DNA of 33,020 bases from IMG/VR virus record IMGVR_UViG_3300011337_000463, positions 1 to 33,020 of that record; one strand, written 5' to 3'. How positions within the stretch are numbered: the first letter of the stretch is position 1; each line of letters starts with the position of its first letter. Positions 2,381 to 30,632 of the stretch are shown here, in pieces. Origin of the DNA: a virus. Taxonomy: Duplodnaviria; Caudoviricetes. The notes beneath the pieces are model-generated. The model was not told the origin of the DNA. It searched no databases and worked only from the letters and a program-made list of their open reading frames with translations. Made by a program: the position numbers and the translations under genes.

Positions 2381-2656
2381 TTATAGTTTCTTTATTTCTT
2401 GTTTTACTTCTTTCCAATAACTAATAGTTGAAGATACTTGTGTGTAAAATTCATTTTTATGTGGATTAGATTTAATTATCTCATAAACTGCTATTAAAGC
2501 ACATTGTTTAGCAGTAAATAAATCAACACAACAAACTGTATTTTTTTTATATTGGCATTTGGCATTATCGCAGTAACTTTCGTGTTCGCAATTAGTGCCT
2601 ACTTTTTTTAAGTATTTATAAAATAATTCTTCTGCTTTTTCTTTTTCATTACTCAT
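2381..2656 (-). CDS. Hypothetical phage protein
   Basis: 91-aa ORF coupled by ATGA overlap; Cys-rich middle. Confidence 0.7.
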   Translation of the reverse strand: MSNEKEKAEELFYKYLKKVGTNCEHESYCDNAKCQYKKNTVCCVDLFTAKQCALIAVYEIIKSNPHKNEFYTQVSSTISYWKEVKQEIKKL

Positions 2657-2901
2657 AATTCTTTTTCTTTTTTATAGATTTCCAATAGTTCTTTTGCTGT
2701 AAAATATTTTCCTTCTCTATATTCATCAATACTTCTATGATATTCATTAAAATTTTTTCCTTGATAATATTTATTATCTAACCACTCTGTAAATCCAATA
2801 GCAAATTCATCTGCTATTTGTTCGCATTCTTCTGCATTATAGTTTTTCTTTTCCCAAACTTCTTTTTTTGCATATTTTTCAAACTTTTCTTTTAGTGTCA
2901 T
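2653..2901 (-). CDS. Hypothetical phage protein
   Basis: Likely start MTLKEKFEK at 2901, directly after the upstream stop. Confidence 0.65.
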   Translation of the reverse strand: MTLKEKFEKYAKKEVWEKKNYNAEECEQIADEFAIGFTEWLDNKYYQGKNFNEYHRSIDEYREGKYFTAKELLEIYKKEKEL

Positions 2902-2902
2902 C

Positions 2903-3100
2903 TTATTTCTTTTTATGTTTTTCAAACCATTCTCTTGAATTAGTAAACCTTTTAGGTGCTCTAAATATAGTATCTGCCATTTTTGCTAATAGTATAAATA
3001 CTTCTTCCTCACTATACATTTTTTCTATTCTAAATCCAGTATCTACATTTATACCTTTTATTCTATTTTCAACAGCTTCTTCAAGAGTTTCTTGTTTCAT
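2903..3100 (-). CDS. Hypothetical phage protein
   Basis: 65-aa ORF tightly packed in the - strand operon. Confidence 0.65.
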   Translation of the reverse strand: MKQETLEEAVENRIKGINVDTGFRIEKMYSEEEVFILLAKMADTIFRAPKRFTNSREWFEKHKKK

Positions 3101-3104
3101 GTTT

Positions 3105-3614
3105 TTATTTTATTAAATTTATCTTATAAGCCAATTCTAAATACCCACTAAACAATAAATTAGTGCCTCCGTAAAGATACGATAAATCATTACGTTTAAT
3201 ATAATTACCTTTCAATCCAATACAAAAATTATCTAAAATCTCATATTGCACTTTACAGTTTAATCCATAAGACATAAATCCACCATTTCCGCTAAACTCC
3301 TTTTCTACTTCGCCACGATTAATTAACGAAAATTCAATACTTGGTGTAACAATTAACTTTTCTGTTATTGGTAATTGATAACCAACACTGCATCCGTAAC
3401 GTGTAAAAGCTATTCGATTAAAGTTTTCATAGAAAATACCAACGTCAAAGCGATTAAACGAAATCATATTAAATCCAAGTAAGTAATCTACTTCGGGTTT
3501 ATTTTGTGTTGGCTTACTTCCTACAACAGCATTTCTTACATCAACCCCAGCAGAGAATGAAACGTTTTGCCCAGAAACGAATAAAGGAAACAGTAAAATA
3601 ATTAATTTTTTCAT
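3105..3614 (-). CDS. Small outer-membrane beta-barrel protein
   Basis: Signal peptide MKKLIILLFPLFVSG|Q, alternating hydrophobic beta strands, C-terminal YLELAYKI strand. Confidence 0.7.
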   Translation of the reverse strand: MKKLIILLFPLFVSGQNVSFSAGVDVRNAVVGSKPTQNKPEVDYLLGFNMISFNRFDVGIFYENFNRIAFTRYGCSVGYQLPITEKLIVTPSIEFSLINRGEVEKEFSGNGGFMSYGLNCKVQYEILDNFCIGLKGNYIKRNDLSYLYGGTNLLFSGYLELAYKINLIK

Positions 3615-3659
3615 TTGTCTTAAAATTTAATTAATACCTGTTAGCTGTCTAAATAAGGT

Positions 3660-3699
3660 AGATAACGTGGGTGTTATGGCTGTTAGCCAATAGTTATGG
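3660..3699. repeat. Short or degenerate attC/attI-like site at the left end of the cassette array
   Basis: AGATAAC-N26-GTTATGG with a small internal TGGCT/AGCCA hairpin. Confidence 0.4.
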
Positions 3700-3705
3700 T
3701 TAATG

Positions 3706-4392
3706 CTACGTTAACGTATCAAAAATTGAAACTTGATTAACATTAGCCTTTTTTTCAATTCCTAAAACAGTTTCAAAAATTGTTCTTCCTGCTTCGTAAT
3801 CGACAAGGTTACAAGCTATTTTATCTTTTCTTTGAGTTCCTTTATAGCTTGATAAATCTATTTCGTGAAATATTTCATTTGGTTTACTTCCTGATTCAAT
3901 AAAACCTTTAGGTTGTGGTCTTTCATTTAAACTTGTTGGTAAATTAAAGTTAGTCCAATATAAATGCCTACCTCTTTTTTTAGCTGGTATCAATGGTTCG
4001 TAAAAAGGAATTACATTTTCAACAACATATTTACCTCTAAAATAATTATCTAAAAAAATAATTTCTTCATAAAGTTTCATATCTGGGAAAACTGGATTGT
4101 AATTTTCACGTTCACTATTTGCTTGTCCAAATCTTATTCTGCTATGTGTAGGGCAAGGCGGAGAACTCCAAATAAAATCAAATTTTTTAAAATTCTCTAA
4201 TAAATATTGATGCGCATCGCAAACAATTACAATATCATTTGGAAATCGCTCTTTGTACATTCTTGCAAGTTCTTCATCATATTCAATAGCGGTTACTTGA
4301 ATTTCAATTCCTTTTTCTTTTACAACGTCATCCCATTTATAACGATTACCGCCTAAACAAGCGTAAAGGTTTAATATTTTATACTTTTGCAT
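3706..4392 (-). CDS. DNA (cytosine-5) methyltransferase, short phage type
   Basis: Motif I LNLYACLGG, motif IV SPPC, motif VI VENV. Confidence 0.88.
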   Translation of the reverse strand: MQKYKILNLYACLGGNRYKWDDVVKEKGIEIQVTAIEYDEELARMYKERFPNDIVIVCDAHQYLLENFKKFDFIWSSPPCPTHSRIRFGQANSERENYNPVFPDMKLYEEIIFLDNYFRGKYVVENVIPFYEPLIPAKKRGRHLYWTNFNLPTSLNERPQPKGFIESGSKPNEIFHEIDLSSYKGTQRKDKIACNLVDYEAGRTIFETVLGIEKKANVNQVSIFDTLT

Positions 4393-4561
4393 CTGATAAT
4401 TTTTTTAATATTTGTAAAGCTTCATCATAGGTTTGTTTGTTCATTGTAATTGACCTTACATAATCAATAAAACAAAATATTTCATCGTATAAATCCGCAC
4501 TAACCATAACACCAGCTTTGCAAGATTGCTTTGTCTGTGATTTTTTGGAAACTTTATTCAT
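4379..4561 (-). CDS. Hypothetical 60-aa protein starting inside the attC-like hairpin
   Basis: ATG in the hairpin loop after an A/T-rich leader; overlaps the start of the C5 MTase. Confidence 0.55.
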   Translation of the reverse strand: MNKVSKKSQTKQSCKAGVMVSADLYDEIFCFIDYVRSITMNKQTYDEALQILKKLSDAKV

Positions 4562-4635
4562 AATTTTAACTGTGTTTTTTATTTGTTAATTTTAGGTTTT
4601 GAGGTCGCAACCTCGCAAAGCTGTAAACGTTATAA
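4504..4635 (+). repeat. attC-like hairpin 1
   Basis: CCATAAC-AC-arm 4513-4529, arm 4607-4623-TAAAC-GTTATAA; arms 15/17 complementary. Confidence 0.8.
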
Positions 4636-4673
4636 GCAAGCTGGCAGACGTGCTTCGATTGAACATTTCGTTT

Positions 4674-5307
4674 CAAAAATTTTAAATAAAAAAGCCCACG
4701 CTTTCTAAAAAAGAGAAGGTTTTGATATTTGATTATTAATTCTGCTAATTGCTTTGTCATAATATGTTTTGTTTAGTTCTGAACCTATAAAGTTTCTATT
4801 CTCTTTGGCACAAGCCACAGCCGTAGTTCCACTTCCACTAAAAGGGTCAAATATTGTATCTCCTTCTTTTGTGTATTCTAAAATCAATTTTCTAATTAAG
4901 TTAATTGGCTTTTGGCTTGGGTGTCCTTCAAATGTATCTTTTGCAAATGATGCAGCCACCGTGCTATTAATCAAATAGTAGTTATAGCATTTATAAGCAT
5001 TGCCACCGTTCCTTTCAAATATTCGTTCATACATACTACCAACGCCACATTTTTTATCCCAAATATGTATTGATGTATAATTCAAAGGGAAGTCAACTTT
5101 TGCACTCCAAAAGATTAATTGCTTACATTCAATATCCTTCATAAAATCAATTATACCTTCAAAATATTTGTATTCATCAGCCAAATAATCGGGATATGGT
5201 GGGTCGGTTAATATCAAATCCACTTTACCTAATCTCTTAATTGTATCTAAACAATTCTCGTTATATAATTCTATTCTTCCCACGCTTTTTTTTATTTAAA
5301 ATTTTTG
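4674..5307. repeat. 20-bp inverted repeat plus 10-bp direct repeat bracketing the MTase ORF
   Basis: Perfect IR 4674-4693/5288-5307; DR CCCACGCTTT at 4695-4704 and 5279-5288. Confidence 0.9.
4705..5283 (-). CDS. DNA methyltransferase, beta-class N6-adenine/N4-cytosine
   Basis: TDPPY precedes HPSQKP and DPFSGSGTT; GTG start. Confidence 0.92.
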   Translation of the reverse strand: MGRIELYNENCLDTIKRLGKVDLILTDPPYPDYLADEYKYFEGIIDFMKDIECKQLIFWSAKVDFPLNYTSIHIWDKKCGVGSMYERIFERNGGNAYKCYNYYLINSTVAASFAKDTFEGHPSQKPINLIRKLILEYTKEGDTIFDPFSGSGTTAVACAKENRNFIGSELNKTYYDKAISRINNQISKPSLF

Positions 5308-5351
5308 TTCAGTTCTTCGATTTAACATTTGTGCTAACTAATCCAGCCAGC

Positions 5352-5446
5352 TTATAACACGTGCTATAAGCAAGTTTGCCATCAACATTTTCGGTAACTT
5401 GAACATTTCTGCAAGGCAAACCTGCTAATAGCACCATACGTTATAA
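5352..5446 (+). repeat. attC-like hairpin 2
   Basis: TTATAAC-AC-arm 5361-5380, arm 5415-5434-CATAC-GTTATAA; arms 18/20 complementary. Confidence 0.8.
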
Positions 5447-5644
5447 ATTCATCTCACTATGAAATATAAAAAATCCATCATCTTTAAAATCTATTTTATT
5501 ATTGAATTTATTACCTACTATTGTAGATACGCTCATAGGAGTACAGCCTACTATTTCAGATATTATTCTTAATCTTTTGTCGTTGCCGTTGAAGTATAAT
5601 CTTAATACTTCCTGTTTCTTTTTTTCGCTTAAACATCTACTCAT
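5441..5644 (-). CDS. Small helix-turn-helix protein
   Basis: LRIISEIVGCTPMSVSTIV HTH-like pattern. Confidence 0.65.
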   Translation of the reverse strand: MSRCLSEKKKQEVLRLYFNGNDKRLRIISEIVGCTPMSVSTIVGNKFNNKIDFKDDGFFIFHSEMNL

Positions 5645-5910: not shown

Positions 5911-5918
5911 CAAATTTA
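5911..5918 (-). promoter_or_regulatory. Bacteroidota -7 promoter box that would drive transcription into the cassette array
   Basis: TAAATTTG on the - strand in an intergenic gap; no clear -33 TTTG. Confidence 0.5.
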
Positions 5919-6465: not shown

Positions 6466-6731
6466 TGTAACAGGTTGTTACACCTGTTACACCTGTTTTT
6501 ATTTTATAACTTTTTAATTGTCAAACATTTACGCTCTATTTTCAGCAAGTGTAACAGTAACATGTTACAGTTAACGTAATATTTATAAAATTTTATTTTT
6601 TAAAAAATATTTTTTTCTTAAAAAACGCCTGTTACACCTGTTACACCTATTAAAAACGTTGTGAGTACCAATAAAATCAACACTTAACGACTGTAACATA
6701 GGTGTAACATACTGTAACATCAAATGTTACA
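6466..6731. repeat. Iteron array, probable replication origin
   Basis: 11 copies of TGTWACA around an almost pure A/T tract (about 6577-6625), directly downstream of the primase-helicase. Confidence 0.8.
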
Positions 6732-9579: not shown

Positions 9580-9819
9580 TTATTTATATTCTTTATCAAA
9601 AATGTAATAAAATTTGTTTTGCATAGTTTGAAAGAAGTTGCTTTGTCTAACTGTTTTATTTTCATAAAACTTACTTAAAACTGGAAGCAAAAGATTCTGT
9701 AATTCTCTTGCTTTATCTTGTATTTCTTTTGTCTGTTTAGTAGGCGTCATTACTGGTTCATCAATTTCTTGAACCAGTAAATCAACCAATACTAACATTT
9801 TTGCTAATTTCTTTTGCAT
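9580..9819 (-). CDS. Hypothetical protein
   Basis: 79-aa ORF with TAATG overlap. Confidence 0.7.
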   Translation of the reverse strand: MQKKLAKMLVLVDLLVQEIDEPVMTPTKQTKEIQDKARELQNLLLPVLSKFYENKTVRQSNFFQTMQNKFYYIFDKEYK

Positions 9820-11999
9820 TAGAATAATGTTAATGTTGCGTTTTTTTCATCTACAAAAGCTTTATGATTATTTGAATTTAAAGAAAAATAGCTTTTTTTT
9901 AATTCTATTGATATTGATTTTCTATTCATTTTAATAGCAGAGCAACCCTCTGAACCAATACCTCCAAATGGACTAAAAACAGTTTCGCCCTCGTTTGAAT
10001 ATAAATGTAATATTCTTTCAATAGTATCTAATTGTAATGGGCATATATGTTTTTCATCATTGCCATCACGCCCAGACCGATATTGTAATGTTCTTGAATA
10101 ATCAATATCATACCAAACTGGAGAAGCATATTTCTGCCATAAATCAACAGGTAAATAATCAAATTTTGAACTATCTTTATCTTGATGAGTTATCGGAGTT
10201 TTATTTTCGCCTTCATTTCTAAAAAATAAAACATAATCAGGAATTCCAACTCTTGACATTACACTATCTTTTTTAATAGTTTTATGAAGTAATCCTAATG
10301 CTTTTGTTCTTTGCATTTCTGTTACTGGATTCTTCCAAATTGTAACTTTTGAATGATAAATAAATCCCTCCTCTTGAAACCAATTAATAAGCATTCCGCT
10401 AAAATCACGCAATCCAATATATCCTTCTTTTCCTTTTTGTATTGGCAAGTCCATACAATGAATAGCACAAATACGCCCGCTTTTTAAGACTCTTTTTAAT
10501 TGCGGTACTAAATATTTAAAATGTTCTTGAAATTGATTATAGTTGCTTACATTTCCCATATCCTCTTCTTTATCACTATAAACATATAATTCTGCAAATG
10601 GTGGAGAAAAAACAATAACATCAGCACAATTATCAGGAAGCTTTGCTGTTTCTTGTACACAATCTCCATTTATTAAATGGTAGTTTTCTGTTTTAATTTC
10701 TTTGTTCATAATTTTTACTTTTGATTTTGCTGTTTTATAATTTGTTTCTGCTGAATATAATGCCATTTCTCTGATTCTTTCAAAGTGTTGTTTTTCTTTA
10801 TCTAAAATAGTAGTTCTTACATTAGTTTGGCTTTCAGGAATAAGAATATGTACTTTTACTTTTTTCTTTTGTCCAAAGCGATAGCATCGTCTAACGGCTT
10901 GATAAAATGCTTCAAACTTAAAATCATAACTCATAAAAATCATATCGCTGCATTGTTGATAGTTCATTCCAAATGATGCAATAGATGTTTTTGTAATTAA
11001 ATTTTTAAATTCATTATCGGAAAAGCCATTTAAATATTTTGCTTTATATTCAGGAGCATCAGACCCTTGAACATTAATAGAATTATCTAATAACTTTGAA
11101 AGTGTATCAGTTTCGCTATTTTTTAATCCCCAAATAATACATTGATTATCTATATTATTTACAAGTTCTAAAGTTTTAGTAATCCTTAAATCAAAACTTC
11201 TATTCAAGTCTTTATGTAATTCAGTAGCAGAAACAGCTACATCGCAAAATAAAGACTGGCTTAAATTTTCAACTGGTATAATATGTTCAATATATTCTAT
11301 TTCAGGAAGAGTATAACCATCGCCATTAAATCCTAAAGTAATTGGATTATCAATAGCAATACTCCAGCTTGATACATACTTCCAAAATGCATCCTTTGCG
11401 TGCTTTCTTAATCGCCATTTTGAAGTTTCTCCTCCATCATGAACAAAGAACATAGCCAACATTTCTAAATAACTCATTCCTCCTAAAAATTCAGAATGTT
11501 GCCCTAATTCCATATGGTCATTTGGTGATGGTGTTGCAGTACAACAAAGCTTATAAGGAGTTGATTTAAACAATTCTAAAATTAAAGATGAAGTTTTGCC
11601 ATCTCTACCTTTTAAAATTGAACTTTCATCAAGTACAACTCCTGAATAAATAGAAACATCAATATTTTTTAACTGCTCGTAATTTATAATATCAAAATGT
11701 TTATTTTCAATATTAAATTTTTTAGCTTCTTTTTTTGTTTGTTCTATAATTGCCAAAGGAGCAAGTATTAATACTTTCTTTTTTGTTTTAATTGAAACTT
11801 GTTTAGACCATTCTAATTGACAAAATGTTTTACCTAATCCACAATCAAAAAATAAAGCAAATTTACCTTTAAATAAAGCTGTTTTTACTCCAAACTTTTG
11901 AAAGTCTTTTAATAATGGATTTAATTTATCTTCAGAAATATTAAACCCGCTTTCAATAAATGTTTTTCTTTTAGTTTCTAAAAAATTTGTATAATTCAT
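9819..11999 (-). CDS. SNF2-like helicase fused to a beta-class DNA methyltransferase
   Basis: GLGKT, LDESS, TATP, QAVRRCYRFGQ helicase motifs, then FSPPF, HICP and FSPFGGIGS MTase motifs. Confidence 0.88.
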   Translation of the reverse strand: MNYTNFLETKRKTFIESGFNISEDKLNPLLKDFQKFGVKTALFKGKFALFFDCGLGKTFCQLEWSKQVSIKTKKKVLILAPLAIIEQTKKEAKKFNIENKHFDIINYEQLKNIDVSIYSGVVLDESSILKGRDGKTSSLILELFKSTPYKLCCTATPSPNDHMELGQHSEFLGGMSYLEMLAMFFVHDGGETSKWRLRKHAKDAFWKYVSSWSIAIDNPITLGFNGDGYTLPEIEYIEHIIPVENLSQSLFCDVAVSATELHKDLNRSFDLRITKTLELVNNIDNQCIIWGLKNSETDTLSKLLDNSINVQGSDAPEYKAKYLNGFSDNEFKNLITKTSIASFGMNYQQCSDMIFMSYDFKFEAFYQAVRRCYRFGQKKKVKVHILIPESQTNVRTTILDKEKQHFERIREMALYSAETNYKTAKSKVKIMNKEIKTENYHLINGDCVQETAKLPDNCADVIVFSPPFAELYVYSDKEEDMGNVSNYNQFQEHFKYLVPQLKRVLKSGRICAIHCMDLPIQKGKEGYIGLRDFSGMLINWFQEEGFIYHSKVTIWKNPVTEMQRTKALGLLHKTIKKDSVMSRVGIPDYVLFFRNEGENKTPITHQDKDSSKFDYLPVDLWQKYASPVWYDIDYSRTLQYRSGRDGNDEKHICPLQLDTIERILHLYSNEGETVFSPFGGIGSEGCSAIKMNRKSISIELKKSYFSLNSNNHKAFVDEKNATLTLF

Positions 12000-28947: not shown

Positions 28948-30632
28948 TGGGGGAAGTAAAAGCAATAAGTTTAGCATCGCATAAAACAGCAGTTTTTGAA
29001 GAAGTTAAACAAAGTGGAAAAAAATATATTTTAAACGGACAAAATAATAGCGGTTACGATTACGTTATTAACCGTTATAAATATTCTCCAACAAATTCAG
29101 CTATTTTAGATAGTTACGCATCATTTACTTATGGGCGTGGATTAACTGCTAATTACGATGTTTCTTTAGCACCACAAATGGCGGTTGTTCAAAGTCTATT
29201 TAAAAAAGATACGGTTAGAAAATTAGTAAAAGATTTTGTTTTATTTCACGAATGTAGCTTTGAGATAATTTTAGGCAAAACAGGAAATGAAATTGCAGAA
29301 ATAAACCACTTGCCAAAAAATAAAGTAGTACCAAGTGAGGTTAACGAAAAAGGAGAAATAGAGTCTTATTGGTACTCTTATGATTGGAGTAATTTAAGAA
29401 AATATCCAGCGGAAGAAATACCAGTATTTACACCTGACACTAAAATTAAAAAGACTGTTTTTGTTGTTAAAGAATATTCAATCGATAGTTTTTATTTTGC
29501 AAGACCATCTTATTATTCAGGATTAAATTATGCTGAATTAGAAGAACAAATTTCAATCTATTGTATCAATCATATTAAAAATGGTTTAAGTGCAGGACAT
29601 ATAATAAATGTAAACGAGGGCATAACAGATGAGGAAGTTAAAAGCGAAATAGAAAAAAATATTATTCGTAAATGGACCGGAAGCGAAAATGCAAATAAAT
29701 TTATTTTATCTTTTAATTCAAACAAAGATAACGCCACAACTTTAGAAAGCGTTTCTGTATCTGATGCACACCAACAATATCAATTTTTAACAGAAGAAGC
29801 ACGTAGACAATTATTAGTAGCACATAAAGTAGTTAGTAGTTCAATAATTGGTATACAACAATCTACTGGTTTTAGTTCTAATTCAGAAGAAATTGAAACA
29901 GCTTTTAATGAAACGTTATTAAACGTAATTAAGCCAATGCAAGACTGTTTAACAGATGGCTTTGAATATGTATTATCAAAAAATAAAATTAGCTTACAAT
30001 TGTTCTTTGAAAGTTTACGCCCTAAAGTTGAAAAGACAGTAGAAGTTGTAAAAATGAGTGCTGAAAAAAAAAGTAATCTTGATAATGAAGTAGCTGATGC
30101 ACTTATTAAATTAGGGGAAGATATAGATTTAGAAAAATGGGATTTAGTAAGCGAAGCACCTGTTTGTTATGAAGATGATGATAAATTTCATTCATTTGCA
30201 ACAACAGGAACTGCTTTTCCTAATGCAAAAAGCGAAAACGATAGCAAAGATTATAAAGTAAGATATAAATACAACGGTCAAATAAGTGATAATAGTCGTG
30301 AATTTTGTCGTAAAATGATAAATGCTTCTAAAATATATCGAAAAGAGGACATTCAGAACATGAATAGTTTAGTTGTTAATGAGGGTTGGGGCGAATATGG
30401 AACAGAACCTTATTCTATTTGGAAATTTAAAGGCGGTGGTGCTTGTAGACATAATTTTTTACGACAAATTTATGTTTCAAAAGGTTTTAAAGTAGATGTA
30501 AATAGCCCTTTAGCTGAATTAATTAATATAAATGATGCCCGTAGAGATGGATTTAACAAAGATTTAAACGATAATGAAGCGTTTGTAGTACCAAATACGC
30601 TTCCAGATAACGGATTTTTACACAGAAAATAG
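28947..30632 (+). CDS. Portal protein with C-terminal MuF-like (head morphogenesis) extension
   Basis: SPTNSAI, NGLSAG, WTGSENA, LLVAHKV portal-like motifs; then SREFC...GGACRH. Confidence 0.72.
   Translation: MGEVKAISLASHKTAVFEEVKQSGKKYILNGQNNSGYDYVINRYKYSPTNSAILDSYASFTYGRGLTANYDVSLAPQMAVVQSLFKKDTVRKLVKDFVLFHECSFEIILGKTGNEIAEINHLPKNKVVPSEVNEKGEIESYWYSYDWSNLRKYPAEEIPVFTPDTKIKKTVFVVKEYSIDSFYFARPSYYSGLNYAELEEQISIYCINHIKNGLSAGHIINVNEGITDEEVKSEIEKNIIRKWTGSENANKFILSFNSNKDNATTLESVSVSDAHQQYQFLTEEARRQLLVAHKVVSSSIIGIQQSTGFSSNSEEIETAFNETLLNVIKPMQDCLTDGFEYVLSKNKISLQLFFESLRPKVEKTVEVVKMSAEKKSNLDNEVADALIKLGEDIDLEKWDLVSEAPVCYEDDDKFHSFATTGTAFPNAKSENDSKDYKVRYKYNGQISDNSREFCRKMINASKIYRKEDIQNMNSLVVNEGWGEYGTEPYSIWKFKGGGACRHNFLRQIYVSKGFKVDVNSPLAELININDARRDGFNKDLNDNEAFVVPNTLPDNGFLHRK

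Follow-up and report, generated by a model that had tools for sequence, protein, structure and literature searches.

The window analysed here is the whole virus record IMGVR_UViG_3300011337_000463, a stretch of 33,020 bases that encodes a terminase, a portal protein, a primase/helicase and a tape-measure protein and was rated complete by CheckV, but is linear. The host of this phage is probably a member of the Bacteroidota, as judged from the family of sites described below, which matches both Flavobacterium phages and genomes of Bacteroidota. Near the left end of the window, two DNA methyltransferase genes are arranged in an array of two cassettes, each consisting of a gene and a hairpin site (Table 1). 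Neither PF00589, the tyrosine recombinase family, nor a profile of the host enzymes found a tyrosine recombinase in the record, in agreement with the initial annotation, which had reported that the window lacks such an enzyme.

The methyltransferase array

Table 1. Features of the array and its surroundings (positions in the window)
Feature	Position	Strand	Remarks
Left acceptor end	3660..3695	+	attI-like by behaviour; without family hairpin; crossover in GTTAT 3693-3697
Cassette 1, 936 bp: C5 methyltransferase + hairpin B	3693..4628	+	skipped as one unit; ends 13/14 complementary
C5 cytosine DNA methyltransferase, 228 aa, open frame, PC motif	3706..4392	-	PF00145 E 1e-6, phrog_363
60-aa frame	4379..4561	-	ORF list; phrog_6087 E 9e-5
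Hairpin site B, AAC-N2...N5-GTT	4508..4631	+	arms 4513-4529, 4607-4623; pairs 15/17
Cassette 2, 811 bp: N6/N4 methyltransferase + hairpin A	4629..5439	+	ends 14/16 complementary, ungapped
Inner boundary, left	4674..4702	+	20-bp inverted-repeat arm 4674-4693, CCCACGCT 4695-4702
N6/N4 DNA methyltransferase, 192 aa, DPPY + FxGxG motifs, GTG start	4705..5283	-	PF01555 E 2e-25, phrog_67
Inner boundary, right	5279..5307	+	CCCACGCT 5279-5286, other inverted-repeat arm 5288-5307
Hairpin site A, AAC-N2...N5-GTT	5356..5442	+	arms 5361-5380, 5415-5434; pairs 18/20
Possible Bacteroidota-type -7 promoter box TAnnTTTG	5911-5918	-	unsupported by enrichment

The initial annotation had assigned the two genes to C5 and N6/N4 methyltransferases, the PC, DPPY and FxGxG motifs being those named in such enzymes, and both assignments were confirmed by Pfam. 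Its claim that each block has its own complementary ends was also borne out. The 60-aa frame starts in the loop of hairpin B, crosses an arm and the AAC core and overlaps the start of the C5 methyltransferase gene, thus representing one case of an in-frame ATG inside a hairpin. Relatives of the C5 gene showed cassette ends in 9 of the 29 loci checked, most being without them, and one relative was found in first position beside a short phage recombinase.

The two hairpins of like geometry were recovered at the places originally reported, with 2/5 spacers, and they are the only 2/5-spacer hairpins in the window, three other long-arm matches being TGTTACA repeats (6468-6729). The GTT of site A shares bases with the stop codon of the backbone gene that follows (5441-5644). 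A recount of the arm mismatches on the plus strand returned A.C, A.C, A.C and A.A, so that the original figure of three A.C out of four holds, and the minus strand, as had been proposed, folds better by 1.2 and 2.4 kcal/mol at the two hairpins. Site A folds far better than its shuffled versions (z -4.4 and -4.7). Taken as a whole, site B is no outlier (z -1.0 and -1.2), owing to a long loop that is rich in AT; it belonged to the training set of site model R1.

The left end had been described as a short AAC...GTT site; it is no small version of the hairpin, as two unrelated small stems were found in it. In the relative L005, the counterpart of its AAC is the right arm of a stem resembling a terminator, and a homologous left end is followed there by a different cassette. 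As cassettes change directly behind it, the left end of the window behaves as an attI-like acceptor; it gave no match to the acceptor consensus of recombinase-bearing phages or to that of hosts. The proposal of a phage promoter at 5911-5918 was not supported either. The consensus of the Bacteroidota -7 promoter box, TAnnTTTG, occurs 79 times in the window against 67 +/- 8 expected and is not enriched, and the box in question is just one of these chance-level matches. No terminators were found in the window, a sigma-70 scan was at chance level and the Rfam covariance models returned 0 matches there.

Some features of the backbone were recorded alongside the array. A SNF2-type helicase fused to a third N6/N4 methyltransferase domain is encoded outside the array, at 9819-11999. 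Direct and inverted TGTTACA/TGTAACA repeats are clustered immediately 3' of the primase/helicase gene (6468-6730) and probably represent a replication origin. About 1.3 kb with four genes (2381-3660) are missing from L005. By eye, the product of the gene at 3105-3614 resembles a small beta-barrel protein of the outer membrane, signal peptide included; Pfam, PHROG and NCBIfam gave no match. Loose contig ends near 3611-3651 suggest that a boundary there is also variable.

Rearrangements in the phage population and in relatives

In the contigs of all four runs carrying the stretch, a joint 3692->4629 skips the 936 bases of cassette 1 from one GTT to the next, with five letters fitting either side. 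The depth of the joint was 13, 28, 34 and 63, and that on the cassette 65, 149, 79 and 153. The C5 block is missing exactly between the G|TT positions 3693 and 4629 predicted as breakpoints by the initial annotation, which had also named circular or empty-site forms as bearing on its reading; the empty form was here found for cassette 1. Two studies supplied the four runs, among which may be the source of the window itself; the runs therefore show polymorphism and not independent replication, and the empty allele does not tell loss from gain, nor the date of the event. In run X8, another cassette start was joined behind 3697. No backward (circle) joint was present in eight contig sets (the four runs with the stretch and four others), contigs being an assembly product that drops rare forms. 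Four low-share runs contain cassettes of other phages and carry no information on habitat.

Exchange at the same positions was evident in relatives. The backbone of L005 is 87-88% identical to that of the window on both sides; hairpin A is shared, and two other cassettes, both methyltransferase-like by eye, lie between the same ends, a different cassette standing in place of cassette 2 before the same hairpin A. The interior of site A is near-identical in 34 viral loci with varied flanks, with GTT as expected in 33 and 31 different sequences counted behind it.

Four of the 17 matching records of isolated Flavobacterium phages were fetched, and in lillamy9-1 the site model gave 16 matches in one row. 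In both lillamy9-3 and lillamy9-7, a 439-bp unit, made up of a gene and the hairpin on its AAC side, has left its mid-array place and now stands first, behind a left end that is no hairpin; sniff9-2 lacks exactly this unit. Two cassettes inserted in sniff9-2, and a deletion shared by lillamy9-7 and sniff9-2, likewise have their ends at G|TT, and one replaced block in lillamy9-7 starts a few bases before GTT, in the spacer between two similar sites. The translocation demonstrates that the hairpin travels with the gene on its AAC side, and led us to reject the idea, raised by the variation of the flanks of site A on both sides, that hairpins and gene blocks move independently. The unit runs from G|TT on the long-spacer side to the next G|TT and contains an opposite-strand gene followed by AAC and the hairpin. 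Blocks were found to be swapped, lost and moved at G|TT in L005 and the Flavobacterium phages, where the initial annotation had placed the breakpoints. A short non-coding cassette with its hairpin occurs twice in one array (L216:2064-2229 and 3521-3686); this contig was binned to a Saccharibacteria genome and is probably a mis-binned phage.

One of these cassettes can be set beside published host-range data. In the parts of the paper considered here, Nilsson et al. 2020 report that phages plating poorly on strain LMO6, among which lillamy9-1 and morran9-1 are named, lack one methyltransferase (PMC7077304); the word integron never appears in these parts. One column of its table S13 is empty in all lillamy and morran phages and filled by gene 15 of sniff9-2. 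This methyltransferase gene is a precise G|TT-bounded cassette (L212 5770-6613). From these parts of the source we infer that the column corresponds to the methyltransferase missing in the poor platers, its absence being correlated with poor plating on LMO6.

Such changes might need no dedicated recombinase and arise when repeated promoter/terminator-like hairpins recombine in the ordinary way, homologously or illegitimately, a route put forward for the promoter-stem-loop elements (PeSLs) of T4-like phages. Near-identical copies of site A could seed such an exchange, the lillamy9-7 breakpoint in a spacer fits it, and tyrosine recombinase genes are missing from the phages that show the clearest rearrangements; PF00589 had no match in lillamy9-1 or P12002L, both phages with family arrays. 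However, the 936-bp skip joins places sharing five letters only, and the hairpins showed no terminator-like T run. The cassette ends covary, and linkage between the sites and one recombinase family is tight and directional, as reported below. We consider such an exchange distinctly improbable and favour a site-specific reaction.

The site family and the linked recombinase

The rules of the site family were drawn from phage loci partly selected for carrying the sites. The spacers were 1/5, 2/5, 2/6, 3/6 and 3/7, with the longer one on the crossover side, and their asymmetry was 3 or 4 in 154 of 196 hairpins. Arm mismatches in 154 sites were A.C in 238 cases, G.T in 78 and of other kinds in 60, while AAC and GTT were invariant across 51 aligned sites, which had been selected on these cores. 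A first strict geometry scan, run with no GC weight and no core filter, was swamped by AT-rich repeats and could not tell 2/5 apart from the remaining spacings, whereas the filtered scan could. Three host arrays gave no Rfam match above the gathering score and no Flavo-1, whose seed sequences look different.

Pairing between the two ends of a block reached 5.85/7 at positions 4-10 in 107 blocks, compared with 3.14 +/- 0.11 for shuffled ends (2000 shuffles). Where the ends pair well (89 blocks), position 11 is always unpaired, with A.C in 77 of them, and positions 12-14 pair in 83-92%. Of the 107 phage blocks, 81 had their longest frame antisense and 2 had it sense, no frame being dominant in the other 24, and an in-frame ATG inside the hairpin was found for 35/80 antisense genes against 23/160 other frames. 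Since the phage genes are antisense to the array, each hairpin travels in front of its gene; new phage cassettes would lie at the end farthest from any upstream promoter.

The initial annotation had pointed to Bacteroidota genomes as the place to look for arrays with linked recombinases. These were found in Flavobacteriaceae chromosomes, where the genes are sense, and in other phages, where they are antisense; one site family adjoins one recombinase family in both. The recombinases have SAM_4 and Phage_integrase domains, match NF040815 best and are present in 54 of the 61 Flavobacteriaceae genomes sampled. Five genomes bearing site A each have tyrosine recombinases, none of them above the IntI cut-off, and three host enzymes scored 196-221 bits against a cut-off of 265. 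The array-linked enzymes keep the catalytic residues, as judged by eye, and skip model positions ~180-238, i.e. the IntI insertion is missing. The phage enzyme showed its best VchIntIA match over residues 12-176, but a continuous alignment with XerA. A quick tree, with no IntI included, placed the host and phage array-linked enzymes together and set two XerC/D-like proteins apart from them. Separate XerC/D-like proteins are encoded as well by those hosts that were checked. The N-terminus of three host enzymes (L220, L221 and L223) is extended by 70-290 aa with a W-x-S/N-x-T-L-x-x-W motif; the extension is not in the phage enzymes and had no Pfam match above cut-off.

The recombinase gene was located in 23 of the 24 host loci fetched, L238 being dropped as the gene was not located at threshold. 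Downstream of the recombinase we counted 52 sites (51 on its strand) in 197 kb, versus 3 in 104 kb upstream; L251 and L259 had no array downstream. The host cassette genes were sense in 22 cases of 25 and antisense in 0. In four whole genomes, with scoring limited to 150 candidates in each, recombinase-linked arrays accounted for 54 of the 57 matches of the phage-trained model. One genome (G055:C1:3128499-3198009) has a second recombinase copy followed by an array of ~68 kb. In many host loci, TATAAC-NN-GTT or a small palindrome with GTT lies ~30-140 bases from the recombinase stop codon.

Short phage enzymes of ~270-300 aa occur in 6 viral loci of the set. A further search for phage recombinases provided 28 usable loci out of 30, one duplicate and one fragment being left out, in which 51 of 52 sites lie upstream of the gene and on the opposite strand. 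The phage arrays start behind a first site with the consensus ATACATATAGTA before GTT; conserved non-hairpin first sites adjoin both host and phage recombinases. A collection of isolated phages gave no close relative of the short recombinase, the best reaching ~34%.

The same recombinase might act on double-stranded or cruciform DNA in Xer fashion, the paired block ends serving as binding arms and the hairpin as an accessory or expression element. Its full-length alignment to archaeal XerA, without the IntI insertion used for single-strand sites, is consistent with this mode, as is the pairing of block ends to about position 14 with a fixed mismatch at 11. On the other hand, the arms keep pairing despite sequence change and their mismatches favour one strand 3 to 1, an A.C-over-G.T bias that is expected if one folded strand is the substrate. 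A Xer-like reaction on duplex DNA appears quite unlikely to us, and recombination of a folded strand is preferred.

Proposed mechanism and comparison with known systems

We consider it probable that the recombinase-less two-cassette array of the window undergoes site-specific shuffling in trans. The loss, exchange and movement of units at G|TT is likely the work of a tyrosine recombinase that is related to IntI but of Xer size, and which the phage would likely borrow from its Bacteroidota host or from a co-infecting phage. As suggested by the pairing and the strand bias, a unit would leave as a circle with its two ends paired over ~14 bp, and the folded substrate would be the strand with G.T wobbles, here the gene-sense strand. 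The circles would then re-enter preferentially at the first site. The methyltransferases would likely protect the phage from host restriction, with selection keeping them variable.

The organization of cassette 2 bears on how cassettes are made. The N6 gene is bracketed by the direct repeat CCCACGCT (4695 and 5279), within a 20-bp inverted repeat. Among 90 occurrences of this inner motif on the top strand, 21 have a site no more than 110 bases away, compared with 1 among 90 occurrences of the reverse complement; the motif is mostly placed 63-70 bases inside the cassette end. Another locus (L291:195-1080) has the same shell as cassette 2 around another gene, with the switch at the CCCACGC repeat. 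The first cassette beside a phage recombinase (L275:1990-2420) has the 14-bp ends of cassette 1 with another gene and another hairpin. The ends are therefore reused and not gene-specific. A search with one exact pattern for an empty shell gave 0 viral contigs. Loading of genes into shells as a second step is a hypothesis, by which cassette 2 would be a loaded shell. Only tentatively do we extend it to a mirror-oriented, integron-like pool run by Bacteroidota phages themselves, in which the hairpin might supply the translation start and cassettes might be made by loading a reusable CCCACGC shell. Shell loading, if true, would offer a direct handle on the making of gene cassettes, and such a pool would mean that an IntI-less enzyme tunes phage host range. 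The shell-and-payload pattern bears on the origin of cassettes, an open question in the field.

As for the wider meaning, these data point to a cassette-shuffling system that is common in a major phylum and was nearly missed by standard integron surveys. Virulent phages appear to gain, lose and reorder methyltransferases with this system in trans, a mechanism for fast host-range change. Because the enzyme lacks an insertion thought essential for hairpin-site recombination, it puts the purpose of that insertion to the test, and since cultured phage-host pairs with natural rearrangements exist, the system is testable at once.

Published work already includes a methyltransferase-bearing CALIN in a Bacteroidota phage. 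In the parts of their paper covered here, Qi et al. 2023 described CALINs in virulent phages, among them Polaribacter phage P12002L with two methyltransferases, and proposed an anti-restriction role for cassette-borne methyltransferases in an integrase-less phage array (PMC9892861). Two P12002L sites were called there as classical attC of divergent direction, and one of the two, attC2, recombined with IntI1, attC1 giving no verified product; these parts do not describe the geometry, a cognate recombinase or rearrangements in nature. In our analysis P12002L (L290) has 11 family hairpins on one strand, with the genes antisense, and 2 on the other. The sites tested by Qi et al. lie at 29177-29245 and 30009-30055; attC1 is one of the family hairpins, taken from the opposite strand, while attC2 is the left end of the array, has no AAC core and was not picked up as a family hairpin. 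The methyltransferase CALIN of P12002L belongs to this site family, read backwards. Our search, outside which lay subscription journals and bioRxiv supplements, returned no published description of the system.

The array could then be regarded as an ordinary CALIN, its sites being classical attC elements that came from a host integron and are substrates of a classical IntI. The AAC/GTT cores, the G|TT crossover and the end complementarity are shared, the related P12002L array was given that name, and one of the two sites tested from it was active with IntI1, as far as the covered parts of PMC9892861 tell. However, the spacers measure 1-3 and 5-7 nt, not 5 and 5, the site without a verified IntI1 product in that source is the family hairpin, and the array-linked recombinases fall under the IntI cut-off and skip the insertion. 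Almost no Bacteroidetes integrons are named in the covered parts of the IntegronFinder 2 paper, Salinibacter alone among Bacteroidetes proper (PMC9024848). An ordinary CALIN is accordingly very unlikely. We give practically no credence to terminators or REP-like repeats forming the pattern by chance, which the position of the hairpins between co-oriented genes and the unexceptional folding of site B would allow, given the end covariation, the lack of Rfam matches and, unless they are assembly artefacts, the exact skip and translocation at G|TT.

Shuffling in trans at folded sites, the reading preferred here, invites comparison with three known systems. PeSLs are promoter/terminator repeats and are not known to have a linked site-specific recombinase or an AAC/GTT crossover core. 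As described in the parts of the papers considered, those of T4-like phages are, like the present sites, repeated structured elements bounding variable phage genes (PMC2839356, PMC4122927). Archaeal XerA and NF040815, named 'site-specific tyrosine recombinase/integron integrase', are the best structure and family matches of the array-linked enzymes. XerA resolves chromosome dimers, according to the covered parts of PMC8138268, whereas the array-linked enzymes adjoin cassette arrays.

Integrons, sedentary chromosomal ones included, share with this system the G|TT crossover, the cassette made of a gene and one hairpin, the complementary ends, the one better-folding strand, the non-hairpin first site beside a tyrosine recombinase and the movement of a cassette to the first position. 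The classical enzyme differs in having a catalytic-domain insertion, described as essential for integron function in the same parts of PMC8138268, which is missing from the array-linked recombinases. The family also differs in its asymmetric spacers, in end pairing to ~14 bp with a fixed A.C at position 11, and in orientation, the host recombinase being co-oriented with the array and the phage genes antisense with the hairpin upstream. Classical attC sites have R-5 nt-L boxes on both arms and extra bases on the R''-L'' arm; the 5/5 spacer rule fits the aadA7 control, and the family does not show this layout. With regard to the integron itself, the window locus has no intI gene, the array-linked integrase has no IntI-specific insertion, and the first site is of attI type by behaviour only. 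As in attC sites, AAC/GTT cores are present with natural junctions at GTT and the cassette start is complementary to its own end; a sense gene with the site downstream occurs in host cassettes but not in the phage blocks. The array works like an integron but, judged by IntI and attC, lies outside the integrons.
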